A stretch of 64,000 nt of DNA from the NCBI GenBank assembly GCA_951406725.2, contig OX597831.1, forward strand, positions 69,998,001 to 70,062,000, given 5' to 3'. Below, one piece after another: positions 17,717 through 62,380 of this stretch (the first letter of the stretch is position 1; every line of letters starts with the position of its first letter). A program made the position numbers and the translations under genes. The notes under the pieces were generated by a model. It was not told the DNA's origin and made no database searches. It saw only the letters and a program-made list of their open reading frames with translations. Origin of the DNA: Octopus vulgaris. Lineage: Eukaryota.

Positions 17717-18257
17717 AAACAATTGCAGCGTGGAAGGTGTTTGTAAGCCATTTAAGAAACACACAAAAGCCGTTTGATTCACTTCAACATTTAAATTTAA
17801 TTTGTCAAAATATTTTCGTTGCTTTAAGACCATGAACAGGTTGCGGTCTTAAAGCGACGAGCTGGCAGAATCATTAGAATGCTGGGCGAAATGCTTAGCA
17901 GTATTTCGCCTGTCTTTACGTTCCGAGTTCAAATTCCGCCGAGGTCGACTTTGCCTTTTATCCTTTCGGGGTCGATTAAATAAGTACCAGTTACGCACCG
18001 CGGTCGATATAATCGACTTAATCCGTTTGTCTGTCCTTGTTTGTCCTCTCTGTGTTTAGCCCCTTGTGGGTAGTAAAGAAATAGGTTTTAAAGCGACGAA
18101 AATATTTTGACAAATTAAACTTAAATGTTGAAGTGAATCAAACGGCTTTTGTGTGTTTCTTAAATGGCCTACAAACACCTTCCACACTGCAATTGTTTTC
18201 GTTTCAGCACACGATCTCAGATCAAATCACTTGCTATGCAAGTACATCTCCGTAAGT
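17717..18257. mobile_element. Fold-back element 1 (Penelope-like inverted pLTR remnant), interrupted by a SINE
   Basis: Arm 17717-17831 is the reverse complement of 17845-17860 plus 18100-18198; partial hammerhead-like motif at centre. Confidence 0.65.
17861..18087 (+). mobile_element. SINE family B with 12-bp TSD
   Basis: gctggcagaatc...gagttcaaattcc...; TSD ttaaagcgacga at 17849-17860 and 18088-18099. Confidence 0.9.
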
Positions 18258-19366
18258 CATTAAATAGTTTGTCAGAAATCAATTCAAAGGACAAGAGCAC
18301 CATGTACCTCACTTGGAAATAAGTAAGGATTGACAACAGGGAAGACATTTCGCTGGAGAACACTGTCTCAACAAGTTTCATGTAATCCTACCAGCATGAG
18401 AAAAGCAGACATGATGAGGATAATGAAGATGGTGGTGGAGTCAGAGGCAGCAGCAGAGTCAGTGGCAGCAATGGAGCGAAAGGTGATAGGTGTGATGACA
18501 GTGTTGATGGCAATGATGATGATGTTGTCAATAATGATGATAACAACAATAAATTACAGTATTTCAGATGGCTAACAAACTTTCAAAAACGAAATTTTTG
18601 GACATATTTACAAATTAGGGCCAAAAAAACATGATGACAAAGTGCGACAGATGGATAGACTGAAGCAGTTAAAGACTCCATCATTTATGGTATGTCTTTA
18701 CCAGCAATGTTCCTTGTAATGAATTTCATTTTTTACTAAGAACTTTCAAGTCCACATCGACTGGAATAGTGCACTAAAATGGATTTTATACTGTTCAATA
18801 AGGACCATTTCCATTTTAACTCAAGTAACACCAGATATATGGTTGATTTTAGTCAAAGCTAAACTTAGAAATTTTTCCAGTATGAAAAATTTGTCAGTGA
18901 AGAAACACATTTTGACAGTATAATTATTTTCACTAAAACATTTTGATAGTATTTTAGATCATAATCATTTAGTGTGCAAGCTATTGAACTGTTGTAGTTT
19001 TGTTTTGGAGAAGGCCCTGACCTAACCTTTAAGTGCACAGTTAATTATATTGTATATTTCTATCAATTTACATTGTTGACTATACAGAGACAATTAACTT
19101 TTAAATTATTGTTATCGAAAATATTGGGGTGAGTGGGGTTGGTAGGGAAATGCTTTCTAATTAGTCTTAAGAAATTTATAGTTATGTCGGATGCTAATTT
19201 CATACCAAAATGTAAGTTGAATAAAATTGTTTGTTCCTGGCTTTATTATTCTCTAGGTTTTGTTCAAGTTGGTATTTTAACTTTTTCTATGAAACCCATC
19301 TTATTCTCTAGTATCATTATAATAGAAGAATCAGTTAGATTTGTCAAGCAATGTATTTGACTGTTT

Positions 19367-19770
19367 AAGGCAGCGAGCTGGCAGAAACGTTAGCACGCTG
19401 GGCGAAATGTGTAGCCGTATTTCGTCTCCTGTTACGTTCTGAGTTCAAATTCCGCCGAGGTCAACTTTGCCTTTCATCCTTTCGGGAGTCAATAAATTAA
19501 GTACCAGTTACACACTGGGGTCAATATAATCGACTTAATCCATTTGTCTGTCCTTGTTTGTCCCCTCTGTGTTTAGCCCCTTGTGGGTAGTGAAGAAATA
19601 GGTATTTTGTCTGTGTTTACTTCCTGAGTTCAAATTCTGCCAAGGTTGACTTTGCCTTTCATCTTTTCAGGATCGATAAATTAAGTCCCAGTTGCATACT
19701 GGGGTCAATCTAATAGACTGGCCCTTTCCCCAAAAAATTCCGGCCTTGTGCCTAAAGTAGAAAAGAATAT
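19367..19770 (+). mobile_element. SINE family B with internal partial duplication
   Basis: aaggcagcgagctggcagaa head; ctgagttcaaattc...gcctttcatc...taagt module occurs twice. Confidence 0.85.
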
Positions 19771-20429
19771 ATTTGACAGTTTATAAATGTGTCACTGCAG
19801 ATTTCTTAAAATTGCAGGTTGAAGAAAATATTTCTCATGACATAGAGAAACTCTTGTTTGTTTGTTTTTTTTTTATCTATAATATCATTCTGCTGCAGTC
19901 TACAAATGTAGCTCTTTAAACAAATACTATCTTAACTCGAGGATAAAACTGAAAATGGTATATATCATACAAATTAAAATATTTGCTTAACAGTTCACTA
20001 TTAAACCGAACCAAGTGGGTGAAAAATATTTTGAATTGTAACACATACACACACACATTTACACATGCATGTGTGTGTGTGTGCGTGTGCTTGTGTGTGT
20101 GTGCATGCTGCTGTTATGTTCAGAGCCGTCTGAGCTATGAAAATCTAAGCAGTTATGTTTGCTTTCTGTATAGTTGTTAACTACTATACTGGTTAGTGTT
20201 ATCAATTACAGGGTACAGAGCAAATATCGGGAAAATAAGAATAAACACAAGTTTATATTAAAGGGAACACTCTGTTGTAGAGGTCGTGGAGTGAATGTGC
20301 ATCAATATGCATTCGGAAATTCCATCATAGGGTTCCAAATAAACATGATGGTAAAACATGCATCGGAACTTTAAAATAAACTAATGTTTATCCTTATTTC
20401 CCCCCCCCACACACACATGTATGTGTATA

Positions 20430-22085
20430 TCTCTTATTATAAAAGGCAGATTTTATCTGCCTCCCTTTGTAACTTATAGAAACCTACAATATAGGATTTC
20501 TTCAATTACAATTTACCTAGCATTTTTAAGAGTGGAATGCATCGGGTCATGCCAGGTCCAGTTTTTAAAATTTAAACTCCAATTAAGCAAAATTTACAGA
20601 AAACTCACATTCTGGTGTGTATGTCAAATGCTTTTCTTAATGTGATTTACACCACACGCACACACACAGTGTGCAACGAATAAAATGAAAGTAAATAGCG
20701 ACAGAGTGATTTGAGGAAGACTAAACTGAGAGTATTTAAACCACTACTCAAAAAATAAAAAAACACAGCAAACAGAAACAAATAAATACATAACGATTTA
20801 CTCCTCACACAATTTCTTCAATTAGAGTTTACCTAAGATTTTTCAAAGTACTCCATTCGGTCATGCCATAATATATTTCTTTCATTTTCACCCCCAATTA
20901 AGACAAAATTCGAGAAAACTCAATATTTTAACATTTCACTCCGAAAGCATTGATGTACATGTGTGCGTGCGTGAGTGTGTGTGTGTGTGTGTGTGTTTGA
21001 TGGGTTGTGCGACACAGAAAGTGTGGTGTGTAAGTGAAGTGCTTTTGTTAGTGTGTGTAAAGAGACAGACAGAGTGAAAGACAGAAATAACTGAACTTTT
21101 TTTATTCACTTTTTGTAGTGAGTGACTGAGAGAGAAAAGGGAGAGAGAGGTTATGTATGTATATATGTATGTATGGCTTCAGTGACACACACACACAAAA
21201 ACACATACCTACGTACACCTAAAGCACGCACACACACACACACAAGCGAAGCGCGAACTTCAAAATTTTGGTAGTATTAATTTGCAAGCGTACTTCTAAG
21301 CGCGCGTAATTGAAAGTTTTCACTATGATATCATCACGTGCGAAAAAATTCGAAGGGTTTTGAACAATTGAAATACACATGTCATGCCTGTATTGAAACC
21401 ATTGCTAAGCTGCCGTAATTGCTTAATTAAGACTTTGTTTAAATTGAAAGGGGCAAATATGTGACGAGGTTGAAAAAAATACCCCAGAAAAAAAAATGTA
21501 CTGCTGGTATTTATATAATTCACTACTATTTTGCTACAATGTCATGAAAAAGAAAAAAATTAGGTATGTAAATCGAATTCGCCACCCTCTTTTCCCCGTT
21601 TGCGTTTGTGTAAAAAAAATTATTATTTAAGTTTTAAAAATTATTTACTTTGTTCAAAAAATATTAATATTAATTAATTTTCAAGAATTATTTAATTTTA
21701 TTCTGTAAAATAGTAATTAATTCATTTATCTGTAAATCCGCGAGGTTGTTACTCAGGCACCTAGAATGGTAACCTTCAACTAACACTATCTCCTCCGAGA
21801 CCCTGCGGCGCAAGTTGACCAAAATTGAGTGTATGGTAGAAGAAGGGTTGCTCTTCCTTCCGTAGAACATAAAATTCAAATCGGACCATGTTAACACCAA
21901 AAATTATTTACATCAAAAAGATGCTTTTTTCTATGAAAATCCCTATTTTTTACGATTTTTTCACTGCTGTGTCGCCACTTTTCGGTGTATTTCGACCAGA
22001 AAAATGTTCACAAAATTTTTACTTTTCAAAATTACAATTCCAGCGGGTCGAAACAAATCCGAGCAACGCCGGGCGATACTGCTAG
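20430..22085 (+). mobile_element. Non-autonomous Helitron
   Basis: 5' TC (A|TCTCTTATTATAAAAG), 3' GC-rich hairpin ccgagcaacgccggg about 10 nt before terminal CTAG|T, inserted at an A/T site without TSD. Confidence 0.8.
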
Positions 22086-22248
22086 TGAATAATAACACAA
22101 ATGGACTGAGATTCACTTCAGCTGCTTCAAGTCAAATTCTTTGCAATTGCAGCATGTATAAAAACTTTTTCTTCTGGTGAATTAAAATCAAGAAGAAAAT
22201 GTTTTTATTTTTTCACATTATGTAAATGATTTGTTCATCAATAAACAC

Positions 22249-22796
22249 CATCATCATCATCATCATCGTTTAGCGTCCGCTTTCCATGCTGGCATGGGTT
22301 GGACGGTTCGACTGGGGTCTGGGAAGCCAGAAGGCTGCACCAGGCCCAGTCTGATCTGGCAATGTTTCTACAGCCGATGCCCTTCCTAATGCCAACCACT
22401 CCGTGAGTGTAGTGGGTGCTTTTTACGTGCCACCGGCACAGGTGCCAGACGAGGCTGGCAAACGGCCACGATTGGATGGTGTTTTTTATGTGCCACCGGC
22501 TCGGAAGCCAGGCGAGGCTGGCAACGGCCACGATCGGATGGTACTTTTTATATGCCACTGGCACGGAGGCCAGTCGGGGTGGTGCTGGCAATGGCCATGT
22601 TCGGATGCTTCTCTTACGTGCCCTCGGCACTGGTATCACAGCTACAATTTCAATTGATGTTGATCGATTTCAATTTTGATTTTGATTTTGATTTTGATTC
22701 TCACTTGCCTCAACAGGTCTTCACAAGTAGAGTTCTGTGTCCCAAGAAGGAAAGGTATGCATAAGTGGACTGGCTACATCCCAGGGAGAGGCCACA
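22249..22796 (-). mobile_element. RTE-type retroposon 3' end (family D) with internal ~60-bp tandem repeats and (GAT)n tail
   Basis: catcatcatcgtttagcgtccgctttccatgc...cccttcctaatgccaacc; repeated gtgccaccggc...ggctggcaacggccacgatcggatggt units. Confidence 0.75.
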
Positions 22797-22942
22797 TCAT
22801 GTCTAAAATAGCTGTAGTGAACCTCAGCCCATTGGTGTTGTAATTTATACTACATCACACTCGGAACCTTCTCTGTGTTGGATTTTGATCCTATTGTAGA
22901 CCAGGAACTGCATATCAGAGTATATACTTGTGTGATTTTACA

Positions 22943-23354
22943 GGCGCAGGTGTGGCTGTGTGGTAAGTAGCTTGCTAACCAACCACATGGTTCCGGGTTC
23001 AGTCCCACTGCGTGGCATCTTGGGCAAGTGTCTTCTGCTATAGCCCCGGGACGACCAATGCCTTGTGAGTGGATTTGGTAGACGGAAACTGAAAGAAGCC
23101 TGTCGTATATATATATATATGTATGTATGTGTGTATGTGTGTCTGTGTTTGTTCCCCTATCATTGCTTGACAACTGATGCTGGTGTGTTTACGTCCCCGT
23201 CACTTAGCGGTTCGGCAAAAAGAGACCGATAGAATAAGTACTGGGCTTACAAAGAATAAGTCCCGGGGTCGATTTGCTCGACTAAAGGTGGTGCTCCAGC
23301 ATGGCCGCAGTCAAATGACTGAAACAAGTAAAAGAGTAAAAGAGTAAAAAGAGT
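22943..23354 (+). mobile_element. SINE family A, full length
   Basis: Complete head-to-tail unit with (agtaaaag)n tail. Confidence 0.92.
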
Positions 23355-23542
23355 ATATGTTGAATGTATTTGGTCTATACTTGTGGACGTATGCATAACT
23401 GGAAGGTGTATACTTTAATAAGTACATGAATTCCTGTACACACCGTTGATACATAGGTATACTGTCCTTGACCTCTGTTTAGGTGATTTTGTTATTAAAA
23501 TACCTCATTTCTATTGGATCCTGTACACACACACAAACACAG

Positions 23543-23636
<94 letters not shown>

Positions 23637-23637
23637 T

Positions 23638-24020
23638 GGAGGCGCAATGGCCCAGTGGTTAGGGCAGCGGACTCGCGGTCATAGGATCACGGTTTCGATT
23701 CCCAGACCGGGCGTTGTGAGTGTTTATTGAGCAAAAACACCTAAAGCTCCACGAGGCTCTGCCAGGGGATGGTGGTGATCCCTGCTGTACTCTTTCACCA
23801 CAACTTTCTCTCACTCTTACTTCCTGTTTCTGTTGTACCTGTATTTCAAAGGGCCGGCCTTGTCACTCTCTGTGTCACGCTGAATATCCCCGAGAACTAC
23901 ATTAAGGGTACACGTGTCTGTGGGGTGCTCAGCCACTTACACGTTAATATCACGAGCAGGCTGTTCCGTTGATTCGGATCAACCGGAACCCTCGTCGTCG
24001 TAACCGACAGAGTGCTTCCA
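23638..24020 (+). mobile_element. SINE family C (tail type 1)
   Basis: tRNA-like head TGGCCCAGTGG / GGTTTCGATTCCC; near-identical to 9611-9994. Confidence 0.9.
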
Positions 24021-24046
24021 TCCATATGTATATATATACATATATG

Positions 24047-24331
24047 TGAAAAACAAGTCAAGATAGAAAATGCTAAAATGATTTTATAAAGAACATTTCA
24101 GTACCGGTTTCAATCATTTGAGACCTTTTCAACTGTAACTATTAAATAATTAAATTTAGAAAAACTTTTCTTTTAATTTTTCTAAATTTAATTATTTAAT
24201 CGTTACAGTTGAAAAGGTCTCAAAATGACTGAAACCGGTACTGAAATGTTCTTTATAAAATTATTTTATCATTTTCTATCTTGACTTGTTTTTTCAAATA
24301 TATCAACTCTGTGTGTCCCTTTTCATCCTTG
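24047..24331. mobile_element. Fold-back element 2 (Penelope-like inverted pLTR remnant)
   Basis: Arms 24047-24164 and 24176-24296 are near-perfect reverse complements; lies in TA-rich microsatellite. Confidence 0.75.
24203..24246 (+). ncRNA. Minimal type I hammerhead ribozyme-like motif, U3-A8 variant
   Basis: CAG-TTGAAAA-GGTC(tcaaaat)GACT-GAAA-CCGG-TA-CTG; mirrored copy on minus strand at 24096-24138. Confidence 0.65.
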
Positions 24332-24483
24332 TATATATATATATACACATACATACATATACAAAAAAATTTTCAGAATGAGATAAAAATCCAAGGCTGT
24401 GAAAGATTTTAGAACATTTATAAATTGAAGGTCTTACAGCTGTTTCTGATAAAATAACTATTGCTTAACCATTTTCTCACACC

Positions 24484-24531
24484 GTCTCCGATGAAAGGAT
24501 ATATAATATATCCTGAAAACAGCTGTAAGAC
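24484..24531 (+). ncRNA. Minimal type I hammerhead-like motif, CCGAUGA core
   Basis: GTCT-CCGATGA-A-AGGATATA(taa)TATATCCT-GAAAAC-AGCT-GT-A-AGAC; stems I, II and III all pair; one extra A after GAAA. Confidence 0.6.
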
Positions 24532-24566
24532 CTTCTATTTATAAATGTTCTAAGATCTTTCACAGC

Positions 24567-24971
24567 CATTCCTGTGGCTGTGTGGTATGTAGTTTGCTTA
24601 CCAACCACATGGTTCCAGGTTCAGTCCCACTGCGTGGCACCTGGGGCAAGTGTCTTCTACTATAGCCTTGGGCTGGCCAAAGCCTTGTGAGTGAATTTGG
24701 TAGACGGAAACTGAAAGAAGCCCGTCGTATATATGTATATGTATATATATATGTGTGTGTTTGTGTGTCTGTGTTTGTCTCCCCCAACATTGCTTGACAA
24801 CCGATGCTGGTGTGTTTACATCCCTGTAACTTAGCAGTTTGGCAAAATAGACTGATAGAATAAGTACTAGGCTTACAAAGAATAAGTCCTGGCCGTTGAT
24901 TTCCTCGACTAAAAGCAATGCTCCAGCATGGCCACAATCAAATGACTGAAACAAGTAAAAGAGTAAAAGAG
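24567..24971 (+). mobile_element. SINE family A nested in fold-back element 3
   Basis: Family A body and tail between the two pieces of the right arm. Confidence 0.9.
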
Positions 24972-25235
24972 CCTTGCATTTTTATCTCATTCTGAAAATT
25001 TTTTTTGTATATACACATGCTGATATATCAAGAAGGTGTCACTGACCCACAACACCACTTTTGAAAGCACTAGGATTACATGTAGGGTTCGAACTCACTC
25101 CCGTTTCGTAAACATGATAAGGCTCACGAATGCATCTTTATGAAAAGCATGATGCATATTCGAAATGTTGACTCATTGAGTATAAAAGGCACCTACATTT
25201 AAAAGCCTGTCAGTCGTTTCCTGAACACAGCAAGC

Positions 25236-26464
25236 ATGCCAAAACTGACGGAATCAGAGGGATTAAGCAATTGGGTGTCTCCGTGCTGGTCAATGTCCAT
25301 GGTTCATGACTAATGACGTGAACTGTAGTATTTGGATGACTGAGCAGCCAAGGGAACAATACAATGCTACAAACAGCACTGATGATTGTCCACCCTGTGG
25401 CCAACCGAGGGTCATAACAGCTCATCAAGATAACCACCTGCACTGACAACACTTGCAGGACCGATTCTGGAGGACAATGGAATCAGTAATGCAGACCATA
25501 GTAACTCACCACAGACCCATTTGTGCAAAGACGGTTCTCCGCAGGCTGAGATCTTTTAATTTGTCTGGTCAACATCTGGCTAAAGAGTCCCATCTTCACA
25601 GATCGTCATCAACGGGCACATCTGCAATGGGCTCAAAAACGTAAGAACTGGCAATATCAACAGTAGAGGACTGTAATTTTCTCTGACAAAAGTTGATATT
25701 GCATTTATGTAGCAGATGGCAGAGCTAATATTTGGAGAAGAGGTGAACATCATGCTGATGGCTGTGTGGTGGAGAGAAACTCATGGGGAGGATAGAGCAT
25801 CATGTTATGGGGCAGGATTGCACTCACCTAGTAACTTTGACCAGTGGTCTTCCAAAACATCGCCAAGGCCAGGGCAACGGAGTAACTGCTTCTTGCTACA
25901 ACAACCAAGTGTTGACGCTTCACCTTGTGCTATACTTTGCTCGTCATCGGAATCACGGGTTCCAACATGACAACGCCCCTGCCCATACTGCCAGGTTGGC
26001 AACAGATTTCCTCCAGCAGCTCAACATCCAGACATTGCCATGGCCTGCCCTAAGTCCAGACTTGAACCCTATAGAGCATCTGAGGGATGAAGTCCAATGA
26101 AGGCTAAATGACCTCCGTCCAAGGCTGACAACTGCAGCACAACTCAAAGCAAACAAGTTTTAACAGAGTGTAGGCTGCTGTCTCCGTGACCTTCATCAAC
26201 CGTTTGGTGCATTCAATGTACAGAAGATGCCTGGTGGTAATTAACGCTAACGGTGGTCACACATGATATTGAGTTCACCTCTTTGGATTCAAGACATTCC
26301 GTCATCTAGTAACACCAAGTGATGTCAAACACGTTTCAGGAAATGACGATTTATCATTAGTAAAGAATGGTTTATTAATTAGCACTCTTCAATCAATGTT
26401 ATGGCTGTCTGTTAATAAACTGGTTTCTATTTAGTATGTGCAATATTTCTTTTGTGGTTCAGTA
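25236..26464 (+). mobile_element. Decayed Tc1-family transposon (DD34E transposase pseudogene)
   Basis: ATG at 25236 (MPKLTESE); IFSDKS first-D region; FQHDNAPAHTAR...WPALSPDLNPIEHL; terminal GGHT*Y* at ~26272; probable right TIR ending ttcagta; left TIR not found. Confidence 0.88.
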
Positions 26465-26852
26465 CACACACACACACGCATGCGTGCAAGCACGTGCACA
26501 CACACATGTACTCACACATACACATGCACACAAACACACACATGCACACACACACGCGCACACACATACACATGCACACACACACATGCACTCATACACG
26601 TACACATACATACACATGCACACACACATGCACACACACATGCACACACACACACGCACACACATACACATGCACACACACATGCACTCACACATGCACA
26701 CACACATACACATGCACACACACACGCACGTACACACATACACATGCACACACACACATGCACACACACACGCACACACACATACACATGCACACACACA
26801 CACATGCACACACACACATGCGCACACATACACATGCACACACACACACATG

Positions 26853-26884
<32 letters not shown>

Positions 26885-26885
26885 T
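26464..26885. repeat. Compound (CA)n/(CACATG)n microsatellite
   Basis: Direct inspection. Confidence 0.95.
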
Positions 26886-26892
26886 ATTGCGA

Positions 26893-27544: not shown

Positions 27545-27577
<33 letters not shown>

Positions 27578-29428: not shown

Positions 29429-29459
<31 letters not shown>

Positions 29460-34701: not shown

Positions 34702-34753
<52 letters not shown>

Positions 34754-34756
<3 letters not shown>

Positions 34757-35146
34757 AATAAGCAACAAGGATATCCAAGGTAGTGTAGTACCATCGTTTC
34801 ATGCTACTTCATTTTATTAAACACTGTAAGTATTACATCAGTTTTAAAATGTCGAACAATCTTCAGCCACATATAGAATGAAATAAGTATAAAAATGTGC
34901 ATTGTCTGTTTAATTAAAAAAATTTATATGTGGCTGAAGATTGCTTGACATTTTAAAACTGAATATAATACTTACAGTGTTTAATAAAATGAAGTAGCAT
35001 GAAACAATTGTACTACTCTACCTTGAATATCCTTGTTGATTATTTTGATTATAATCACACCATTTGATTTATATGGATAATACCATACAAAATTCTGGCG
35101 CCTTTAACTTAAGTACCATATTCATCTGAATCTAAATTTTGCTGAA

Positions 35147-35607: not shown

Positions 35608-36256
35608 GACAAGAGGAAGCCAAAAATTATCCGCACTTTCACCATAACATAAATTTATTATTGTCACACTGCCTTCTGCGCATGAGTGCTTATAGTTGGT
35701 ACTATTGTCGTCATATGATCGAAGTTTGAGTTTGATCATACCATTTTTCTTTCAGCTTTACCGTGTAAGCATGGCTGCTCCACTAGCAATGTGGACCAAA
35801 GAAGAACAGAGAGCAGTGATCCAAGAGATTGTAATGGTGAACTGTTTCGCCATTACCATCTCTTGAGCTAGCTAAATCTTCTCATCAGTGGTGGAGGTTG
35901 ATGGGCGACCTGCTCCCTCTTCGCGTATCATGATAGTCCAGCCACTTTTAAACTTCTCGATTCACTCATACACATATCTACACAGTAGTGCTCTGTTCCA
36001 GTATTGTGCTAAAAGCCTCCGATGGATTTCAGCACCTGACACACTTTTTGACAAGACAAACCAGATCACTGCACTTTGTTCTTTTTTGGTGCACATTGTT
36101 AGTGGAGCAGCCATACTTGCACTGTACAGTCAGAAACAAAAATGGCTCAATCAGACTCAAACTTCGATCATGTGGCCGCAAGAGTACTAATTATAAGCGC
36201 TCATGTGTAGAAGGCAGTGTGACAATAATAAAGATGTTTTTTGACTTCCCTTCATA
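35608..36256. mobile_element. Mariner-derived fold-back element made of two left ends, nested in a minus-strand family A SINE (35480-36440)
   Basis: Plus ATG 35771 MAAPLAMWTKEEQRAVI; minus ATG 36114 MAAPLTMCTKKEQSAVIWF...AEIHRRL...GAGRPSTSTTDE; termini gaggaagccaaaaa / ttttgacttcccttc. Confidence 0.8.
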
Positions 36257-43265: not shown

Positions 43266-44782
43266 ATAAAATGTTATTAAAATTTTATGAATGGCATATT
43301 GACAAGATATGCTCTTTAAAAGTCTGCTGAGCTGATTACAAGCAATCACCAATAATTATGAATGTTAGATGACATTAATCCAATTCAGACTGAACCCTCA
43401 TTGAAGTTTCAGGAAATCAGCAGAAGGTACAATGGTTTGTTTCTGTATTTGGTTTGCAAGATTCTTGATGTCGAATCATATGTTGAAACAGATTTTTGTA
43501 TCTTGGAAGTATCATTATGCCAAATAAATACACATGTACTGGTTCTCTTTCACTTGCTTAATTATTATAAGTCAACTAGTTAATCGTTTCACTTACTTTT
43601 ATTAGTCTTATTAGTCAACTAGTTGACCATTTAACCAGTTAATGAAATAATTGTTCAATTAGCCATTTGGTCAATCAATCTGTCAAATAGCTTCACGAGA
43701 GTCCTTTCATTGTCATCTGTGACCTTGTCAGTAACATGTCCTGACTATTCCAGGGCTCCAGACAAGTAACTGATTAGTTAATTGAGTAAATGGTTAACTA
43801 ATTGGCTAATAATAATAAACGAAGGGAAAAAGAATGAGTGTGTGTTTCTTTTTAGCATAACGACCTTCTCAAAGTTCATCAAAGTACAATGGTCTCTTTA
43901 TTGTCTCTACAACTCTGAGGCATAACTTAACATTGTAATCAAAGAACTGTATTTCTTAATGAGGGTTGAATTCATTACTGAGGTGACTTACGCTGGAACA
44001 GAACTTTATGAAGAGAAAAGATTTAAATGGGTTCCCTTAACAATCCACCAAATAATGAGCAATGTTCCTCTAAAGTTTCAATGAGTAATACATTGAAGAA
44101 ATACGATGTGCACATATTTCCTCATGACTAAAAATAATCAGATGCCAGATGCTTGAATAAATGTAATTCTAAAACATTAAGGTAATTTTGGTCTAAGAAA
44201 TAACAAAAAAAAAACCAAAAACAAAGCATAAGTTATGATTGCCTTGTAAGAAATATCCTGGTCCATTAAAGATACATATAGCATATAAACAATGCAACTA
44301 TTTTTCTACATGTGTATTTATGTTCTACTTGTAGTAGTTCGATTTCCTTTGTGCTCTAATTCAGTTGTACATGTTCATGTTCCTGTGTTCTGCTAATAAA
44401 TAGCATTGGTTATATGATTAACATGAACACGCAAAAACATACATTGATGTATACGCTTGTATATGCATACACAAACACATGTGTGCCTTTATATCATACA
44501 TACACAAAGCAACACATACATAAGCAAATAAACAGCCTCCAGTAACTCATTGCAATATATTCATAACCAGTCGATCTGACTAATAAGTAATAGTTACTCA
44601 GTTGGCAGCCTTTCTTACTAGTTAATCAATGAGGACAAAAAAAATTCTATTGAATTCTGGTTTCTTAGATGGAGACTACAGAATTGATGGAGATTTCTTA
44701 CTTTACTTGCAATAATAAGACTGTACAGCAGTTTTTGTTTCTGTTGTTGGCCCATTAGCTTGGTACTTATTTATGTTTCCAC

Positions 44783-51905: not shown

Positions 51906-53274
51906 TCTAATTTAATTTTCTTTTTTTTTTTCATCTATGGCAATGTTCTAACAATTCTCTAGTTAGTCTAATCATATATATTAAGGTTTCATCAATTTAG
52001 GAATCTGCAGTATGAGCCAACCCGTAAATTTATTAATTAGCTATATTATAAGCATAAACTGATATCTTTCAATACACAGCTCTCTTCTTTAACATCACAT
52101 TTTTTTCAGCTGATATACATTACACTGATATCATACTTGACTTTCACTTTTGATGTCCACCTGTTCACGTTTCCTAATTTCTTTCTCACATTTGCCACCC
52201 CCATTTCTGTATATTTCCATATGCAGCAAGATATCTGGTAATCTAGAATGTTGTGTTGCCTTGAGCATTATTGTATAAATAAAGTCTGTGTTAGGTTTTG
52301 GTCTTTCCATTTGACATTTAAGTTCTTTGTCTGAAACAAGGGAGTAGAACTAAAGAAAGCATTGACATCAATGGGCAGCTTTTCATTTTCCCTCTGCTGT
52401 CTCATTTCATATGCAATATTCTTGGAATTTGTTTCTGTGTATATGTTAATAGCACTTCTGTGAAACTACACACAAAAACACATGGATTCAACCCTCCTCA
52501 TTCCACTATATCACAGCAACTACTCAGAGGCATGGTACGATTAACAAGTTTGCTTTACAACCATATGGTATTTGGAATTGGTTCACTTCTTATACATATA
52601 TACATACATTCACACACACGGGAAATTTCTAATTAAAAGCATCTCTCAGATCTAATATATATACAGCTACAATGAATTTGTAAATCATTTTAATTTAATA
52701 TAATAATTCCATAAAAAGTTATCTAAAATCAATGAAAGTTTGCCTTGGTATTTTAAGTCCCACTTTTAGTCAATATCACAGCAACTTCCAGCTGGTTAGG
52801 CATAGATTTGTTTAAATTATCAGTGACAGACTGATCCATGTTTATCCTCTTTTAAGTCAATGCTTCCTTTAACTCTGTAATTGATGTTTCTACAATCTTC
52901 ATCACAACCTTCTATAAAATGTTTCTATATGTTTTCTTTTAGATTAAGATCAAGGCTTTGAGCAAAAACATTTCAGTGACTTGATTCTGTGCATTCGTTT
53001 CTAAATTTGTGTTACCTTTGTGGTACAACATGGGATGTAATTTTCTTGAAAGGCAAAAGATTGCTTGACCTTCTTCAAGAAGTTAACATTATTCTAGTTC
53101 ATTCAAATGATATTCAGCAAAAATAAGCTCTGATCACCCTCTTGCCCAAACTGTCCTCCTGCCTGTAAGTCCACGTTTATCTGTTTCCTGCGAACAGCTT
53201 AGCTTCCCTATTATAGTTTTGATTTATTACACTATATCTGCCTTGAGTCGCAAAGTTGGATGAATTTACTTCCT

Positions 53275-53681
53275 CTTTACTCTTTTACTCTTTTACTTGT
53301 TTCAGTCATTTGACTGTGGCCATGCTGGTGCACCACCTTTAATCGAGCAACTCGACCCCGGGAGTTATTCTTTTTGTAAGCCCAGTACTTATTCTATCGG
53401 TCTCTTTTGCTGAACCGCTAAGTAACGGGGACATAAACACACCAGCATCGGTTATGCTAGGGGGACAAACACAGACACACAAACAAACACACATACATAT
53501 ATATATATATACATATATATGACAGGCTTCTTTCAGTTTCCGTCTACCAAATCCACTCACAAGGCATTGGTCGGCCCGGGGCTATAGCAGAAGACACTTG
53601 CCCAAGATGCCATGCAGTGGGACTGAACCCGGAAGCATGTGGTTGGTTAGCAAGCTACTTACCACACAGCCACTCCTGCGC
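53275..53681 (-). mobile_element. SINE family A
   Basis: Complete unit. Confidence 0.92.
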
Positions 53682-53859
53682 AACATTTACAATAATTTAC
53701 AATAATTCTGCAACATTTACAATAATTAACAATAATTAACAATAATTAACAATAAGGGTGATCAAAATGCTTACCCTTGTTGCCGAACTCCTTAGACCAG
53801 GCGAACATATTGGACTTACTAGCTTTTCAGATCATCAGTTTCTTTCTTACAATTTTTAT

Positions 53860-53990
53860 TCTTGTGGAAGAGGGAGACCCAGGAAGACACGGATGGAAGT
53901 GGTAAGGAGCAATCTCAGGATGTTGGGCCTCATAGGGGAAATGGACCGTGATGTCTGGTGATATAAAATTCTTGAGGACATTTACCTACA
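53860..53990 (+). mobile_element. RTE LINE ORF C-terminal relic
   Basis: CGRGRPRKTRMEVVRSNLRMLGL...DRDVW matches the RTE terminal pattern RGRPRKTW...V..DL...DR..W. Confidence 0.7.
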
Positions 53991-54484
53991 TCAGTGAAAT
54001 TGTGTTCTAGAAGCACAGTGTGTTCCACTCACATGTAACAAGAAAATTTTTCATACAACATTTCTCAATAAAACTTTGCTTATTGTTACAAGTTGATGTT
54101 TCTACAACATCTAAATTTATTGATATTGTTTTTCTCAGTGGTTTTCTTTGTTGTGTTGATTAATTTGAACTAAAACAAGTATTTATATGAATATTTTTAC
54201 CTTTGCACTAATTCAAAATTCTATAGAATCTGATTGCAGCTCGGAAGATATATTAGCTATTCAAACACACACAAACACAGTTTAATTCACTCAAACATTT
54301 ATTTTCTGTCAAAAATTTTGTTGCACCAACTGCAACCTAGTCACTGATGTAATTCCAGTGCATCTGAAGTTAACAAATTTTGTGTGATTTTGAATGAGGG
54401 ATATTAGTTTCAACACACAATCTCAAATCAGATCATTGCTAAAATTTATAGACTTTGTTTTATTTATTCTGTAAGACTTTTTGC

Positions 54485-54884
54485 TCTTTTACTCTTTTAC
54501 TCTTTTACTTGTCATTTGACTGCGGCCATGCTGGAGCACCACCTTTAGTCGAGCAAATCGACCCCGGGACTTATTCTTTGTAAGCCCAGTACTTATTCTA
54601 TCGGTCTCTTTTGCCGAACCGCTAAGTGACGGGGACATAAACACACCAGCATCGGTTGTCAAGCAATGCTAGGGGGACAAACACACACACATACACATAT
54701 ATACATATATATACATATATACGACAGGCTTCTTTCAGTTTCCGTCTCCCAAATCCACTCACAAGGCATTGGTCGGCCCGGGGCTTTAGCAGAAGACACT
54801 TGCCCAAGATGCCACGCAGTGGGACTGAACCCGGAACCATGTGGTTGGTTAGCAAGCTAGTTACCACACAGCCACTCCTGCGCC
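54485..54884 (-). mobile_element. SINE family A
   Basis: Complete unit. Confidence 0.92.
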
Positions 54885-56065
54885 TAAGACTGTTTTTATA
54901 AGGAAAAGAAGGATAGGGAAAGTTGAATTGAAGCATTTATGGACTTATGTGACAACTGGCAATCAAAAATGCTGCATATGAATTCAGTGAGCCATGAACT
55001 GGCTTCAAATCAGAGTTTAGAACTGAACTTATAATGACAAAATTTACACAGTATTCTATTGTATTATAGTATATAACTGAAGGTAAGAGCCAGTAATAAA
55101 CTGGGTATCAATTTAATTATTTTTCCTCCCCTGCCTAGTTAAGAGAAATTAAAATCTTTACTAGACCTAAAATTGGCAATATAACACATGGATTTATTCG
55201 CTGGGACATTATCTTATCATAGATGTTTCTGGAAGTTGTTTAAAGCAGTAATAGTTCCATACATAATGCTAATTGTAAATCTGTAGACAGAGAGTAGATT
55301 TGTTAATCACCATATTTATTGGGGCTAATTTTTATTTGATAAATCCAATTGAGCAAGTATATATTAGATCCACTGCTAGCATTTTATGATGCAGCCATAA
55401 TTCAGAGATTAGAATTAACCAAGTTCATAAGTTTCTATATTTAAAGACATTTGTATGATTTACAGTTCAAATTTACAGTTTAGTAATTTGCATAAAATGA
55501 TACAGGGATATTAAGTTGCAAGTGTATATTCCAAATGTCAGTTTAATGTTGCAGACAATCTGGAAGTGGAACAGAGCTTAATGATAGCAAATTGTTATTG
55601 GAATGGATAAATTTAATAACTTTATGTCGCCAGCTGCAACATTGTAAAAGAATTATAATTAAGAAAATATTTATCGTTTTTCCTGTTATATATTTATGTT
55701 TCTGCTATAGTATTCAGACAACTAAGATAAATGTTTAGAAATGTTTACAGAGTCCACTTGTCTGCATTGCAATTGCATTTATAAAGACCAGTTCACTATC
55801 TAAACTTTGTTCTATAGATTTTTGCTATGCACATTGAGATATTAATATGTCTTAATTTTACAGCATTTACAACAATATTGTGAATAATGAAGACTGTCTT
55901 TTGCAATGGTGAACCATGTATTTTTGCAGACTTTTATTGCTAAATGTAGTTTACCAAGTTAGCAGAGATTGTTCCACTTTGTTGGACCGTTTGAATTTAC
56001 ATGCTCTGTTTACTAAAGGAATAACGGGATTAGTGAAACTGACTACTTCAGCAGCAGCAGCAAGT

Positions 56066-56450
56066 GGAGGCACAATGGCCCAATGGTTAGGGAAACGGAC
56101 TCGCGTTCGGAGGATTGCGGTTTCAATTCCCAGACCAGGTGTTGTGTGTGTTTATTGAGCGAAAACACCTAAAGCTCCACGAGGCTCTGGCAGAGGGTGG
56201 TGGCGACCCCTGTTGTTCTCTTTCACTCCAACTTTCTCTCACTCTTTCTTCCTGTTTCTTGTCCCCGACTTCCTCTGCTACTGCTGAGCCTGGATGCACA
56301 TTCATCCATCCGTTGATGCTCTCGGTGTCGGGGGTTGACCTGCTTTCTCTTCTGCGGGTCTTACGAATAGCAAAGGACCACATTTCGGACTTCTTCCAGT
56401 GGACGAAGACTGCTACGCTCAACAGCAACAGCAGCAGCAGTAGCAGCAGC
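56066..56450 (+). mobile_element. SINE family C head with tail type 3, ending in (CAG/CAA)n
   Basis: Same head as 23638; unrelated tail gtccccgacttcc...gactgctacgctcaacagc. Confidence 0.78.
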
Positions 56451-56785
56451 ACCAGCACCATTGGCTCAGTAAGGAGAATAGCTATTGTTATTTAGACTCA
56501 AGATGAAGTGCATATGCACCTGCAAATGTCCTGGCTGGACATCATCAATGCTTTCAAAATCCTCATCATCATCATCATCATCATCTTTGTGTATATGCCT
56601 ACTTTTTTCGTACTAGCATGGATTAAACAAGACTTGAGACAACATTCTACAACTAAAAGTTCTTCCTATCATCAATCCTCTCACTCTGGTTTCCACATGT
56701 TGAACCACTGATGTGGAAGGCATATTGTTTATTCAAAGTATAAACAAATGTTACTACTTCTAAGCAGTGTCACTAAGATGACATA

Positions 56786-57434
56786 TGGCAAACTGGCAGA
56801 ATCATTAGAACACCAAGCAAAATTTTTAGTGGCATTTTGTCTGTTTTTATGTTCTGAATTCAAATTCCACTGAGGTTGACTTTGCCTTTCATCCTTTCAG
56901 AGTTGGGAAAATAAGTATCAGTTGAGCACTGGAGCCAATGTAATCGACTTACCCACTCCTTCGAACTTTACACTATTAATGGATATTTAAAGAAGAATTG
57001 ATAAATCTAATTGAGTCTGCAAGATATTCTTATGAAGTTTTACTACCTGAGAGAACCGACTGATCCACAAAACAAAGTCTTTACATATTTATCTGGTGTT
57101 GTCAGAACATAAATTCACAAAAAGTTACAATACAAAATTATCATAATTTTGTATTGTAACCTTACAGGTTATGTTCCAAACACCAGCTTAATAGTGATCT
57201 CAAATTTTAGGACTAGGCCAGCAATTTTTTTGGTGAGGTTGGATGGGAGAATGAGGATGGTTAACTCGATCCCTCCTCTCCTTCCCCAGTACTCATCTGG
57301 TACTTATTTCATCGATTCTGAAAGGATGAAAGGCAAAGTCAACCTCAGCAGAATTTGAACTCAAATGTAAAGAAGGAGGAAATGCCACGAAACATTTTAC
57401 CTGATGGACTTACAATTCTGCCAACTCACCGTCT
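56786..57434. mobile_element. Two diverged family B SINEs (56786-56960 plus, 57285-57434 minus)
   Basis: gactttgcctttcatcctttc motif in both orientations. Confidence 0.7.
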
Positions 57435-57463
57435 TACACTGGAGTTATTTTGCTAGACATCTC

Positions 57464-57696
57464 CGGCACATAAAAAGCACCATCCGACCGTGGCCGTTTG
57501 CCAGCCTTGTCTGGCACGTAAAAAGCACCCACTACACTCACGGAGTGGTTGGCGTTAGGAAGGGCATCCAGCCATAGAAACATTGCCAGATCTGACTGGG
57601 CCTGGTCCAGCCTTCTGGCTTCCCAGACGCCAGTTGAACCATCCAACCCATGCTAGCATCGAAAGCGGATGCTAAACGATGATGATGATGATGATG
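57464..57696 (+). mobile_element. Family D 3' fragment
   Basis: ggcacataaaaagcacc...ggaagggcatcc...(GAT)n. Confidence 0.82.
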
Positions 57697-57849
57697 TTAT
57701 CAAAACATTGTTTTTCATTAGAAGAACAGAGTATTTCATTTGGAGTATAGCAACAAAAGTGTTAACAGCTGTTCATTAACTATTAGATAGCAGGTGTCAG
57801 ATAAAAAAAATATTAATTACCCTCTGATAAAGAGTAGTTATAAACAATA

Positions 57850-58272
57850 GGTGCAGGAGTGGTTGTGTGGTAAGTAGCTTGCTAACCAACCACATGGTTC
57901 CGGGTTCAGTCCCACTGCGTGGCATCTTGGGCAAGTGTCTTCTGCTATAGCCCCGGGCCAACCAATGCCTTGTGAGTGGATTTGGTAGACGGAAACTGAA
58001 AGAAGCCTGTCGTATATATGTATATATATATAAGTGTGTGTGTATATGTTTGTGTGTCTGTGTTTGTCCCCCTAGCATTGCTTGACAACCGATGCTGGTG
58101 TGTTTATGTCCCCGTCACTTAGCGGTTCAGCAAAAGGGACCGATAGAATAAGTACTGGGCTTACAAAAAGAATAAGTCCCGGGGTTGATTTGCTCAACTA
58201 AAGGCGGTGCTCCAGCATGGCCGCAGTCAAATGACTGAAACAAGTAAAAGAATAAAAGAGAGTAAAAGAGTA
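57850..58272 (+). mobile_element. SINE family A
   Basis: Complete unit. Confidence 0.92.
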
Positions 58273-59414
58273 ATCCATTTAAGCACCATGCATCAGTGGT
58301 ATAATTCTAATGTAGAGCCGAATCCACACTGCATGTCTGAATTTCTCTGTCGTCATTTCCCTGCATTCATTCCTCATAATAGCAATTTCTGATAAATAGC
58401 CAAAAGCCTGAAAAGAGACGCTTCTTAACTGGTTGATGTTACTGCTTCTCATTGCACTTTATAAAGGGTGAACTTTCACTGTTGACCCAAGAAACCATTA
58501 ACTGCTACTTGTTTATTAGCCTTCAGTAATCTGGAACTTGTTACACTGGTGAAATGAAGTGTTTATAAAGCTGTGAGTCCTGTTATTGTTTATGTATATT
58601 TCTTCCTCTCTTTCTTCAGCAAATACAGTACACTGATTAATACAAGTGCTGCAGTTGTACTTTAATATTCAACATCATCAGTATCATCAACATTGGCAAT
58701 GGTGTCATTGTCACTATCATCTTCTCCTCCTCCTTCTTTTGAACCTCTTCCTCCTTCATATTTCCTCTCATCTTCCTTTCTTCTGGGGTAAATCTAATCA
58801 ACTGCAACACTTGGTTGGTACATCAGTCTGTCAGAGGGCCGCGCTCTCCAGGTTATCTCCCCTTCAAAATTTCAAGCCCTTGTGTCTATGTTAGAAGCAA
58901 TTAATGTTATTATCAATAATATTAATATGCTTAGTTTTGTTTTTGCTTGTACCTGTGATGTATGTCACACTTCAAAGGAAGATGTGATTGGCAAAGAAAG
59001 AGAAAAGGGGACAGAGAGGAAGTAAGAGAGAAAGAGAAAGATTGAGAGAGAGTGAGAGAGAAAGAGAGAGATTGAGAGAGAGTGAGAAAGAAAGAGAGAG
59101 AGTGAGAAAGAAAGAAAAAGAGAGAGTGAAAGAGACAGGGAGTGGTAGTGGCGTTTGTTTTGTGTTTTTAATTGTTTATCACATCACAAGAAAAGTAGAT
59201 ACAGAGATCAAAAGAAAAGTTGATCGATATATACACACATAGTTAAATTAAAAGCGGGAGAGAAAAGGGACATAGAGGAAGTGAAAGAGGAAAAAGAACG
59301 TGAGAGAAACAGTAGATACATAGACCCAAAGAAAAGTTGATACATAGAAACATAGACACGGCATATATTGGATGTCACTTTCACTTTTCATTACCATACA
59401 AGGATAAAATTAAC

Positions 59415-60130
59415 TCACTGGTGGCTGAGCACTCTACAGACATGCATATCATTAATGTAATTCTCAGGGAGATTCAGCTTCACACAGAATATGACAAGGC
59501 TGGCCCCTCTGAATTACAGCTCCAACTCATTTTGGCCAGCTGAGTGGACTAGAGTGAGATAAACCTTCAAGCGGTTGAAAAAAAATTAAAAAAAGATCCT
59601 ATATTGGGGCAGGAAAATCTTTTTAGTCATTAGGGTCACTATGGGTGTTAATCTGGTCCTAACAGTGGTATTTGCACAGGCTGTTGTTATCAAACTGAGC
59701 ATGAGTCGAGGGCAAATATATGATGGAGTAGCAATTATTTCATCTTAGCTTTCACTGCTTATACTAATCACTTGACATTTTTACCTTACAATATGGAACA
59801 TTTCCTTTCCTTTCACTCTTTTTAAAAAATGGCACTCTGCCGGTTATGATGATGAGGTTCCTGTTTATCCAATCAATGGAACACTCTGTTCATAAAATTA
59901 ATGTGCAAGTGGCTGAATACTCCACAGACAGCCATACCATAAGGTAGTTCTCAGGGAGATTCACCCCCACACAAAATGTGACCTCTATGAATTGCAACTA
60001 CAATTCATTTTTGCCAGCTGAATGGACTGCAGCAAGGGGAAGTGGAGTAACTTGCTCAAGAACACAGCACACCGCTGGGAATCATCCTCATCGTGGGCTG
60101 AATTCTCCTAACTACTGAGCCATGCACCTT
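59415..60130 (-). mobile_element. Two diverged family E SINE fragments (59415-59560, 59830-60130)
   Basis: gtggctgagcactc...ttctcagggagattc...tttgccagctga motifs. Confidence 0.65.
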
Positions 60131-60634
60131 CAGTCTCTTAACCATAGAGAAAAAGAGTGAAGTGATAGAGATAGAGAAAGAAAAGCCTCAATAATTTACA
60201 ATGATAATTAGACTGAAATATTATTGATCTTTTAACAACGAAGAAGAGGGAAAGATATTTAAGTAATGAATAGAGGGAAAGTCTTTCAGGTGTTTACGTT
60301 TTTATTCTGGGTGTTCTAGAAGGATCGAATATTAGCTGTCTCATCTTTCCCCCTCCCCTGGTACTTATTCATCTTCTTCCATAGTTCTTCTTATCTTTTA
60401 GTTGATGGTGGGGAGACCATGGTTTATTTTTCAAGCACATCCAATGTTTTCTCTACAAACTACTAACAACCCCTCTCCCTTCCTGTTTTTTTCATACAAA
60501 GACTAATGCAGATTTTGAACAGGGTATAGCTGTTAAAAGAGCCCAGAAAATTGGGTAATACCTCCTGCAAAATGGGTGGGGAGAAAAGTTGCCAACAGGT
60601 GGCTACACTAAATTCAACTATATACTTTAAAGGG

Positions 60635-60940
60635 TGCTTTCTACTATAGCCTCTGGTTGACCAAAGCCTTGTGAGTGAATTTGGTAGACGAAAACTGAAA
60701 GAACCCCATCATATAAATATATATTTATGTGTCTGTTTGTGTCTGTTTGTCCCTGCCCCCATTGTTTGACGACCAATGTCGGTGTGTTTGCATCCTTGTA
60801 ACTTATCAGTTTGGCAGAAGAGACTGCTGACGGAATAAGCACCAGGCTTAGAGGGACTAAGTCCAGGGGTCGATTTCTTCAGCTAAAGGGTGGTGCTCCA
60901 GCATTGCCACCATCAAAGGACTGAAACAAGTAAAAGAATA
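60635..60940 (+). mobile_element. SINE family A-related, 5'-truncated and diverged
   Basis: ctactatagcc...ggtgctccagcattgcc...actgaaacaagtaaaaga. Confidence 0.78.
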
Positions 60941-61196
60941 CCAGAAGAACATTCCGTACCACTAAACCAAGAGGGTTCTTTGAATATGTACGATGTACTT
61001 TAAGGTTATATAGTAACTCTGTTTACGTTTGCATGACTGAGATATAGTTATTGGTTTTACACTTCTTCCTATATTCTGTGTCACAATATTCTATATTCTG
61101 TAAGTGTCACAATATTGAAAACTTTTTCATGGCACCAGCACACTATGTTTTCTGTGAATTTTTTACGGGTCCAGCTAGTTATTATTATTATTATAA

Positions 61197-61427
61197 TGTG
61201 GTGAGCTGGTAGAGTCGTTAGCACTCTGGACGAAATGCTTAGCAGCATTTCATCCGTCTTTATATTCTGAGTTCAAGTTCCACCAAGGTCAACTTTGCCT
61301 TTCATCCTTTCGGGGTTGATAAATTTAGTACCAGTGAAATTCTGGGGTCAATGTAATTGACTAGACCCCTCCCTGAAAATTTCAGGCCTTGTGCCTATAG
61401 TAGAAAGGATTATTATTATTATTATTA
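61197..61427 (+). mobile_element. SINE family B, diverged
   Basis: gagctggtagagtcgttagc...gcctttcatcctttcggggttgataaa; (TAT)n tail. Confidence 0.78.
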
Positions 61428-61904
61428 TGATTGGCAAAAACCATTATTGTGTCATAGAAAAGTATTTGTGGGACTTCTTCAGGCTCTTTATTTGCTAAGC
61501 TCAAATCCCATTGAGTCAGCTTTGCCTTTCATATTTTTGGGGCTGATAAGTCAAGTACTGGGGCTGACGTAATCGACTTTATCTTTCCCCTCAAAATGAC
61601 TGCCCTTGTACTAAAATTAGAAAGACTTATTACCATCTAGAGGAGGTAGTGGTGCTGAATGTGTTTTACCAAGCTTGCAGACTTACCAGTTTTTTATTCT
61701 TTTACTTGCTTCAGTTATTGGACAGCAGCCATGCTTGGACACTGTTTTCTACACAGCTTCTTTCTACAACATTCATTCACAAGATATCAGTTTGCCTAGT
61801 CTATAGCAGAAGATAATTGTCCACAGTTCCACACAGTGAGACTGAACCCAAAGTATACTTCCAAAACTCATCCATGCTTGCACCATATTGAAAATGTTTT
61901 GACC

Positions 61905-62380
61905 ATTGTTGTATTTCGGAATGGTCGTTTTGCCAGTTTAGCCAATAAAAACACACGCACTATATATTTGGTGTTCTTTTGCTTCAGTGTTATTTATTTT
62001 TTACATTAATCTTAATTTTATTTGGGCCAGAGTTCTTTCGTCACACTCCTGTGACCGCATCAGGGGTCCTTTGCTTGCTTTCTTCTTTCTTATTTGTGTG
62101 TCTCTCCTTACTAACCGTCAACCATTTTGTATTTCTATTGAAATAAGAAAGAAGAAAGCAAAGGACCACTGATGCGGTCACAGGAGTGTGACGAAAGAAC
62201 TCCTGGCCGAAATAAGATTAAGTTTAATGTAAAAAATAAATAACACTGAAGCAAAATAACACCAAATATATAGTGCGTGTGTTTTTATTGGTTAAACTGG
62301 CAAAATGACCATTCCTAAATACAACAATATCTGTTTCAACACACGATTTCACATAAAAAATCTTGCACAACAAATATATA
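61905..62380. mobile_element. Fold-back element 5 (Penelope-like remnant)
   Basis: Arms 61905-62095 and 62141-62328 are near-perfect reverse complements. Confidence 0.75.
62163..62208 (+). ncRNA. Minimal hammerhead-like motif, CUGAUGC core variant
   Basis: GGACCA-CTGATGC-G-GTCACA(ggag)TGTGAC-GAAA-GAAC-TC-cTGGCC; mirrored copy on minus strand at 62024-62069. Confidence 0.55.

Follow-up and report, generated by a model that had tools for sequence, protein, structure and literature searches.

Endonuclease-positive (EN+) Penelope-like elements (PLEs) show a known insertion structure, which consists of a head-to-head inverted copy, a fixed end of the pseudo-long terminal repeat (pLTR) and a one-sided tail, as described in the text of PMC8557442 and PMC3846280. 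For the anole element PAc, the tail is reported to be the stretch between two internal start sites of reverse transcriptase (RT), and hammerhead ribozyme mutants of PAc insert normally in vitro (PMC11167929, in part). Minimal hammerheads are known to occur as opposite-strand pairs spaced 100-700 bp (PMC4209133), PLE pLTRs contain internal promoters (PMC2377424), and, according to the texts of PMC8557442 and PMC11167929, the role of the hammerhead in PLEs is still open. This study concerns 64,000 nucleotides of Octopus vulgaris DNA (GCA_951406725.2, contig OX597831.1, positions 69,998,001 to 70,062,000, forward strand; hereafter the window), which belong to an assembly of 2.8 Gb and 227 contigs and contain five hairpins, named E1 to E5 in window order, each with a hammerhead-like motif near its centre. 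The original prediction, made from the letters of the window without database searches, regarded them as a recurrent system of unrelated elements without open reading frames (ORFs), centred on the ribozyme. The present analysis indicates that they are very probably 5'-truncated pLTR insertions of five EN+ PLE families, each joined to a head-to-head inverted copy and carrying a minimal type I hammerhead that is predicted to be buried in the hairpin and to be active only as a dimer.

Compared with canonical EN+ PLE insertions as described in the texts of PMC8557442 and PMC3846280, the elements share the inverted copy, the fixed pLTR end, the optional tail, the (TA)n targets and, in long copies, an ORF with a C-terminal GIY-YIG domain. 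They differ in that the tails are 27-92 nt instead of the usual 30-40 bp, and in that the window copies are without any ORF sequence. With the minimal type I PLE hammerheads of PMC4209133 they have in common a short stem I, a palindromic stem III, an AU-rich 3' flank, the U3-A8 pair, an extra base between positions 9 and 10.1 (E1, E5) and the opposite-strand pairs, whereas the long stem II of E4 and the non-palindromic stem III of E5 set them apart, and G3-C8, U4C and A9C as family-wide states were not found in the text of that paper. The natural core variants named in the text of PMC3088659, figure 5 and figures S6-S7 aside, include U3-A8, the U10.1-U11.1 mismatch and a viroid U4C, and G3-C8 and A9C are not among them. 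As in PAc (PMC11167929, in part), two RT start sites would define the tail and the hammerhead would be dispensable for insertion; G3-C8, however, was engineered in PAc, whereas here it is natural and fixed in more than 1000 copies, and the genomic copies, by an added G and the lack of ends at the cut, provide in vivo-type evidence that capped templates were used uncut. As a type, the elements are ordinary, and the G3-C8 core with canonical sister families, the A9C change in the youngest burst and the cap-like sign of an uncut template are additions to a known architecture.

Five hairpins and their hammerhead motifs

Self-comparison of the window by BLASTN recovered the five expected inverted repeats at 17717-18198, 24040-24303, 24357-25012, 34748-35053 and 61905-62328, with an arm-to-arm complementarity of 76-96%. 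The core and stem III words were present as read originally, the motifs faced outward with an AT-rich arm next to them, and the longer arm noted in four hairpins was confirmed in the form of one-sided tails of 57 (E1), 27 (E2), 92 (E4) and 55 nt (E5). The hairpins, two of which are interrupted by repeats resembling short interspersed elements (SINEs), are composed as follows:

17717..17831, minus strand: inverted short arm of E1, which stops at the pLTR end that is fixed in the family (self-BLASTN and other copies)
17832..17859, plus strand: 5' part of the E1 direct arm, with core remnant TGAACA (family GTGAACA) and the 5' strand of stem II; the 5' strand of stem I is missing
17860..18087: SINE-like repeat of 228 bp (8 window hits) in the stem II/GAAA junction of E1
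17849-17859 and 18088-18098: 11-bp target-site duplication of the SINE in E1
18088..18198, plus strand: 3' part of the E1 direct arm, with the 3' strand of stem II, GAAA, palindromic AATATT, a UUU triplet, the 3' strand of stem I and the AT-rich remainder of the pLTR
18199..18255, plus strand: E1 one-sided tail, 57 nt, similar to the E5 tail
24040..24164, minus strand: E2 inverted short arm, its hammerhead copy with a 1-nt core deletion
24155..24303, plus strand: direct arm (pLTR) of E2, whose PLE family has a linker of the form CX4CxxC (Neptune-type)
24206..24243, plus strand: complete minimal type I hammerhead of E2, with U3-A8 core TTGAAAA, palindromic ACCGGT and a predicted cut after 24240
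24304..24330, plus strand: E2 one-sided tail, 27 nt
24357..24446, minus strand: E3 inverted arm, stem III outward
24450..24567, plus strand: E3 direct arm, with the hammerhead at 24484-24531 (U4C core CCGATGA, A.G at 10.1/11.1, palindromic ACAGCTGT; G12->A in this copy)
24568..24969: SINE-like repeat of about 400 bp (24 window hits) in the E3 direct arm
24970..25012, plus strand: 3' end of the E3 direct arm; this copy is without a tail
34748..34879, minus strand: inverted short arm of E4; its hammerhead is complete, with the core at 34866 and the cut predicted at 34789
34877..35053, plus strand: E4 direct arm with a complete hammerhead at 34930-35016 (core CTGAAGA, which is canonical; a long stem II with U.U at 10.1/11.1; ACAATTGT as palindrome; cut predicted after 35012)
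35054..35145, plus strand: E4 one-sided tail, 92 nt; insertion within (TA)n
61905..62140, minus strand: E5 inverted short arm, hammerhead copy at 62017-62071
62141..62330, plus strand: E5 direct arm, with the hammerhead at 62163-62208 (A9C core CTGATGC followed by an additional G; AGAACT, not a palindrome; and, in this copy only, one more C at the cut site)
62331..62385, plus strand: E5 one-sided tail, 55 nt

Hammerhead-like motifs had been described for all five hairpins, and a complete fold was confirmed for some of them: the fold is complete in the right arm of E2 and in both arms of E4, and damaged in E1, E3 and E5. The E1 copy has lost stem I and G3 by 5' truncation and its motif is split by the SINE; E3 carries G12->A in the family register besides the SINE in its arm; and in E5 the extra C lies at the cut site of the right arm, while the first stem I pair of the left arm is broken. 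A relaxed type I descriptor, a check that had been proposed and was composed here post hoc with the motifs already known, detected three cores, those of the right arm of E2 and of both arms of E4, compared with an average of 0.3 (maximum 2) for 30 block shuffles of the window; when a palindromic stem III was added, two matches were left in the window and none in all 30 shuffles. The hammerhead family was absent among the 139 matches of an Rfam scan of the window (E<=5). The hairpins had also been described as lacking similarity to each other, which applies to nine pairs (at chance level) and fails for E1 and E5, which are related: their tails match at 27/34 nt with a score of 33, compared with a maximum of 26 in 200 shuffles, and the ORFs of the two families are 45-50% identical.

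Links to Penelope-like ORFs

BLASTN of each arm against the genome, as originally suggested, showed every arm to represent a high-copy family, with 492-2633 first-look candidates per arm and best copies of 91-99% identity (40 candidates scored and 30 loci kept per search). No PLE protein match was found inside the window; the search for longer copies revealed upstream ORF sequence in all five families, with a pLTR bearing the hammerhead motif downstream of the ORF, which bears out the earlier suspicion of a link between these motifs and PLEs. For E2, 29 of the 30 GIY-YIG loci have the E2 arm downstream on the same strand, and one locus (L257) is a full element comprising an inverted pLTR, a 784-aa RT-GIY-YIG frame and a pLTR with tail, the intact ORF matching RVT_1 with an E-value of 2.9e-8 and GIY-YIG with 22.4 bits, just under the Pfam cut-off of 22.6. 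By walking upstream, 8/30 E4 loci were found colinear with an endonuclease whose GIY-YIG match is above the Pfam cut-off, and no RT was seen in the sequence covered by that walk. Endonuclease-region matches are present at 11 of the 29 non-window E5 loci (the query having been taken from one of these, L017), and two E5 loci (L151, L163) extend to an RT with YVDD farther upstream. In E1, 4/30 loci, found by an upstream acceptor pattern, run colinearly into a GIY-YIG-type ORF, to which one locus (L359) adds an RT with YVDD; among named relatives, a hypothetical protein of Octopus vulgaris matches the E1 protein best (52%). Colinear thumb and EN pieces of E3, obtained by the upstream walk and tblastn, resemble a Penelope-type ORF (E 1e-19 to 1e-4), RT coverage in the walks being confined to the thumb region. 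By their linker motifs, E3 and E4 presumably resemble Penelope/Poseidon. The linker of E2 is CX4CxxC (Neptune-like) and that of E1 and E5 CX3-4CxxC, assigned by motif only after the text of PMC8557442.

Judged by these sequences, the five families are EN+ PLEs, a known element type, and the hairpins are stubs of autonomous families rather than a new ORF-less class. The description of the window copies as ORF-less mini-elements was thus overstated, as they are 5'-truncated members of families that encode their own proteins.

An earlier link of E4 to a Neptune-type ORF beside loci L109 and L160 was dropped; this ORF is the insertion target, and only 1/30 of its loci has an E4 arm. The family of this ORF possesses a U3-A8 hammerhead of its own. 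Copies from different PLE families are often nested or adjacent (L160, L156, L200, L205, L259), and such arrangements can fake ORF links. A sixth PLE family (L377, L386-L389, L391, L393) has a Neptune-type ORF about 55% identical to that of E2 and, about 700 nt past the ORF, a minimal hammerhead of its own, in which the 3-8 pair is U3-A8 and stem III is palindromic; stem II is diverged in other copies.

Insertion geometry

Geometry was counted at 141 other loci, with the five window loci and four duplicate loci set aside. An inverted arm lies upstream at 56/141; the other 85 have none within 1.5 kb, and hairpin centres vary between loci. The outer ends of the inverted arms are fixed (E2, 8/8 at query positions 132-134; E5, 10/13 at 191-195; E4, 6/9 at 154; E1, 13/17 at 105-111), and the direct arms overshoot this fixed end by the length of the tail, which was assessed across the families of E1, E2, E4 and E5, the E3 query having stopped at the SINE. 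The 5' ends of E2-E5 are spread from 28 to >330 nt upstream of the core, and no sharp start site was seen in these samples of best BLAST matches; only the E1 start is sharp. Since these ends are scattered, the central position of the motif results from truncation, and a recurrent system centred on the ribozyme claimed too much.

Forcing the hammerhead fold would cost 56 kcal/mol (E2) or 104 kcal/mol (E4) relative to the long hairpin, and a transcript from either strand would make the antisense arm first. For these reasons, the ribozyme, lying next to its own antisense, is predicted to be buried and silent in every hairpin, with no dimer in cis. The hairpin geometry is accordingly predicted to hide the ribozyme rather than to use it.

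Hammerhead cores as family traits

The E1 core, originally read as (A)TGAACA, is GTGAACA by family comparison, with a G3-C8 pair. A search with positions 3 and 8 left free gave 1047 exact matches, and among the 100 listed, 98 have G3-C8 and none C3-G8; the exact G3-C8 core is present in 87/109 fetched copies, across diverged E1 subfamilies, and sister families with E1-like stems are canonical (1728 matches). U3-A8 characterises E2 (64/67 copies). The E4 core CTGAAGA, which had been listed as a variant, is the canonical CUGANGA itself and is exact in 34/36 copies. U4C is found in 36/60 fetched E3 copies, with 79 C and 21 T among the 100 matches listed of 1789, and the T forms fit CpG decay, as the opposite-strand change also occurs. 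At position 9 of E5, 94 C, 3 T and 3 A were counted among the 100 matches listed of 3518. The median divergence of E5 copies with C9, taken in genome order, is 2.4% (n=20), and that of two groups with A9 is higher, at 4.0% and 5.8% (11 copies each; p 0.0013 versus the first group and 1e-5 versus both). A9C is a derived state and belongs to the E5 subfamily that is youngest and largest. The A at position 9 pairs with G12, and changing A9 impairs cleavage. By these counts, E4, E2 and E1 have CUGANGA or a Watson-Crick swap at 3-8, and E3 and E5 depart from it. The expectation that a strict CUGANGA search would miss these cores holds for four of the five, and CUGANGA descriptors together with Rfam miss thousands of such motifs.

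Some of these states have precedents. U3-A8 is a known natural variant (PMC4209133, PMC3088659, in their texts), and U4C has been described in a viroid, where its activity in vitro is low (PMC3088659). An engineered C3G/G8C double mutant partly restores PAc cleavage (PMC11167929), and an engineered G3-C8 is mentioned in PMC3884650. Natural G3-C8 or A9C was not found in the literature searched; Lunse et al. 2017 on PLE hammerhead variants, which lies outside that search, may report G3-C8.

Covariation, another of the proposed checks, was seen in the stems and in the 3-8 pair across E1, E5 and their sister families. In 11 such copies, 90% of cells are paired compared with 28-51% in slid controls, two-sided changes occur in 5/11 pairs, and the 3-8 pair is CG in seven and GC in four. 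A three-way junction with stems I and II and A15.1-U16.1 is supported by covariation for E1, E5 and sisters, by descriptor and copies for E2 and E4, and by eye for E3; stem II of E4 is about 25 bp (by eye). Stem III is palindromic in E1-E4, with self-duplex energies of -0.2, -8.3, -11.1 and -6.4 kcal/mol, respectively, and non-palindromic in E5. A covariance model built from the 11 copies found both E5 arms (a training family) and an old E1-like copy, and gave weak matches only (E 0.02-0.06) on the SINE-split E1. A pLTR tree of 47 rows contains E1 and E5 as supported clades; as its bootstrap is unsettled and flanks distort inner branches, it was not used for the order of events. The old E1-like copy, at 54233-54352 (minus strand; covariance model E 2e-4, BLASTN 75%), is decayed and has kept G at position 3. 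A further decayed fragment at 43439-43522 (minus strand) matches the pLTR end and tail of the E5 clade at 78%.

E1 start sites and the template

The 5' ends of E1 were examined in 99 distinct arms from 100 matches listed, using a pattern that lies 3' of the cut. Starts cluster at 56-63 nt upstream of the cut (44/99), 15/99 extend farther upstream toward the ORF, none is exactly at the cut and 4/99 are within 3 nt of it; most E1 copies are about 215 nt. Twelve arms have as their first base precisely the modal A, which lies in an initiator-like TCA. In 11 of these 12, the base before it is G instead of the C of long copies, compared with 8/64 shorter ends (p 1.4e-7). In a search for a non-C base at that preceding position, 77 of the 100 matches listed (of 432) have G, and at 30 further E1 loci, 18 of the 20 preceding bases that are unexplained by the inverted arm are G, with unrelated flanks. 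An extra G at the 5' end of retrocopies has been attributed to copying of the cap (PMC4038843, in its text). On these sequence grounds, E1 templates were likely capped, uncut RNA, and the cap-like G together with the lack of ends at the cut offers a genomic sign that the integrated template was uncleaved.

The E1 tail ends at a splice-donor-like GTAAGT (window 18255-18260; L125, L133, L144, L147, L149, L150), and the E1 start overlaps a branch-point/acceptor-like stretch, so a leader intron is possible. At L254:1574-6600 (G000:C2:17.908-17.913 Mb), an E1 array preceded by an inverted tail is a candidate substrate for dimer cleavage.

Proposed mechanism and alternative explanations

The inverted copy was likely made during integration. 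An RT-GIY-YIG protein would nick AT-rich or (TA)n DNA, reverse transcription would start at the pLTR end or the tail end, two internal sites as used by anole PAc in vitro, and the first strand would stop early, after which a second, inverted copy would be added. For E1, the commonest template would come from a transcript that starts at the internal pLTR promoter and stays uncut, and would consist of its capped 5' leader: RT would start at the tail of the first pLTR and copy only the leader through to the cap, which would give the extra G and leave about 16 nt between the hammerhead and the centre of the hairpin. Copying likely does not require cleavage by the ribozyme, so that impaired-looking cores (A9C, U4C) could spread, and the paired changes at 3-8 (G3-C8, U3-A8) suggest, from sequence comparison, that selection has acted on the fold in the longer term. 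A working, fixed G3-C8, a disabling A9C in the youngest burst of a sister and uncut capped E1 templates might even show in vivo that selection maintains the ribozyme although its action lies outside the copying step or opposes it, which is a tentative and rather unlikely proposal; if true, the ribozyme might, for instance, limit the element's own transcripts. For testing the role of the hammerhead, the families offer matched natural pairs, i.e., G3-C8 versus C3-G8 sisters and A9C versus A9 subfamilies of differing age.

Several observations weigh against the interpretation as PLE insertions copied from uncut templates. The ORF links of E1, E3 and E5 come from BLAST similarity and motifs read by eye, and Pfam gave nothing useful (absent or sub-threshold) on two E5 pieces, the E3 pieces, the E1 piece and the L160 piece. 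The E2-E5 samples are biased toward copies that equal or exceed the window copy in length, and the covariation set consists of 11 hand-picked related sequences, a relatedness that inflates such counts. Of the 11 G's preceding exact E1 starts, four may derive from the inverted copy's arm, and a single duplicated locus accounts for two of the rows. The extra G could also reflect a terminal-transferase preference, or could end a spliced upstream exon, since the E1 start resembles a splice acceptor; no matching splice donor that would explain it was found in four long copies.

Foldback or MITE-like (miniature inverted-repeat) DNA transposons, or chance inverted repeats with a coincidental hammerhead likeness, would account for the long terminal inverted repeats and AT-rich targets as well as for the silence of Rfam and the post hoc nature of the descriptor. 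The inverted arm is, however, missing within 1.5 kb at 85/141 loci, centres differ and the tail is on one arm, and because the arms run into RT-endonuclease ORFs, a DNA-transposon origin is excluded; this whole group of explanations is scarcely credible. It is distinctly unlikely, too, that E1, and perhaps others, are non-autonomous retrozyme-like elements, in which hammerhead-processed tandem pLTR RNA would form circles mobilised in trans by a PLE protein, an alternative that the original prediction had left room for. Like non-LTR (long terminal repeat) retrozymes, and in line with the pLTR-derived tandem elements described in the texts of PMC7229834 and bioRxiv 10.64898/2026.07.22.740005, E1 has short, pLTR-related tandem units with a type I hammerhead: the L254 array is head-to-tail, with a 166-nt unit, 30 G3-C8 cores and 27 intact 3' halves, a second locus (L162) has four units of 232 nt, and the usual E1 length of about 215 nt would also suit such elements. 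The 166-nt tandem array is nevertheless a single locus, and its units are separated by (TA)n and a locus-specific spacer, as local duplication of one insertion would give. Dispersed E1 copies begin at a capped-looking start and not at a cut/ligation junction, the 15/99 arms noted above extend toward the ORF, and published retrozymes have canonical, not minimal, hammerheads. The window elements themselves are inverted and have no head-to-tail units, and none of the five families is ORF-less, all reaching a PLE ORF.

A somewhat doubtful, yet weightier, explanation is that the variant cores are dead or dying hitchhikers, with G3-C8, U4C and A9C being drift fixed by single-master amplification. 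The position of A9C in the youngest and largest E5 subfamily, the canonical sister families and the uncut appearance of E1 templates agree with it, and Naiad PLEs thrive without hammerheads (PMC8557442, in its text). Against this, G3-C8 needs two pair-keeping changes and is retained across diverged E1 subfamilies and in the old decayed copy, and covariation with sister families is seen in stems I and III. Drift is a good explanation of A9C and U4C and a poorer one of G3-C8, and is compatible with the insertion of truncated EN+ PLE copies for E5 and E3, and less so for E1 and E2.

Other repeats in the window

Most of the remaining inverted pairs in the window come from two abundant SINE-like families, with 24 and 8 window hits. 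One more long inverted repeat, the sixth, lies at 35654-36232; it has arms of 169 bp (84%) and no descriptor hammerhead, and looks like a MITE or DNA-transposon remnant. At 12275-12928 (plus strand), a 217-aa stop-to-stop frame appears retrotransposon gag-like by eye.

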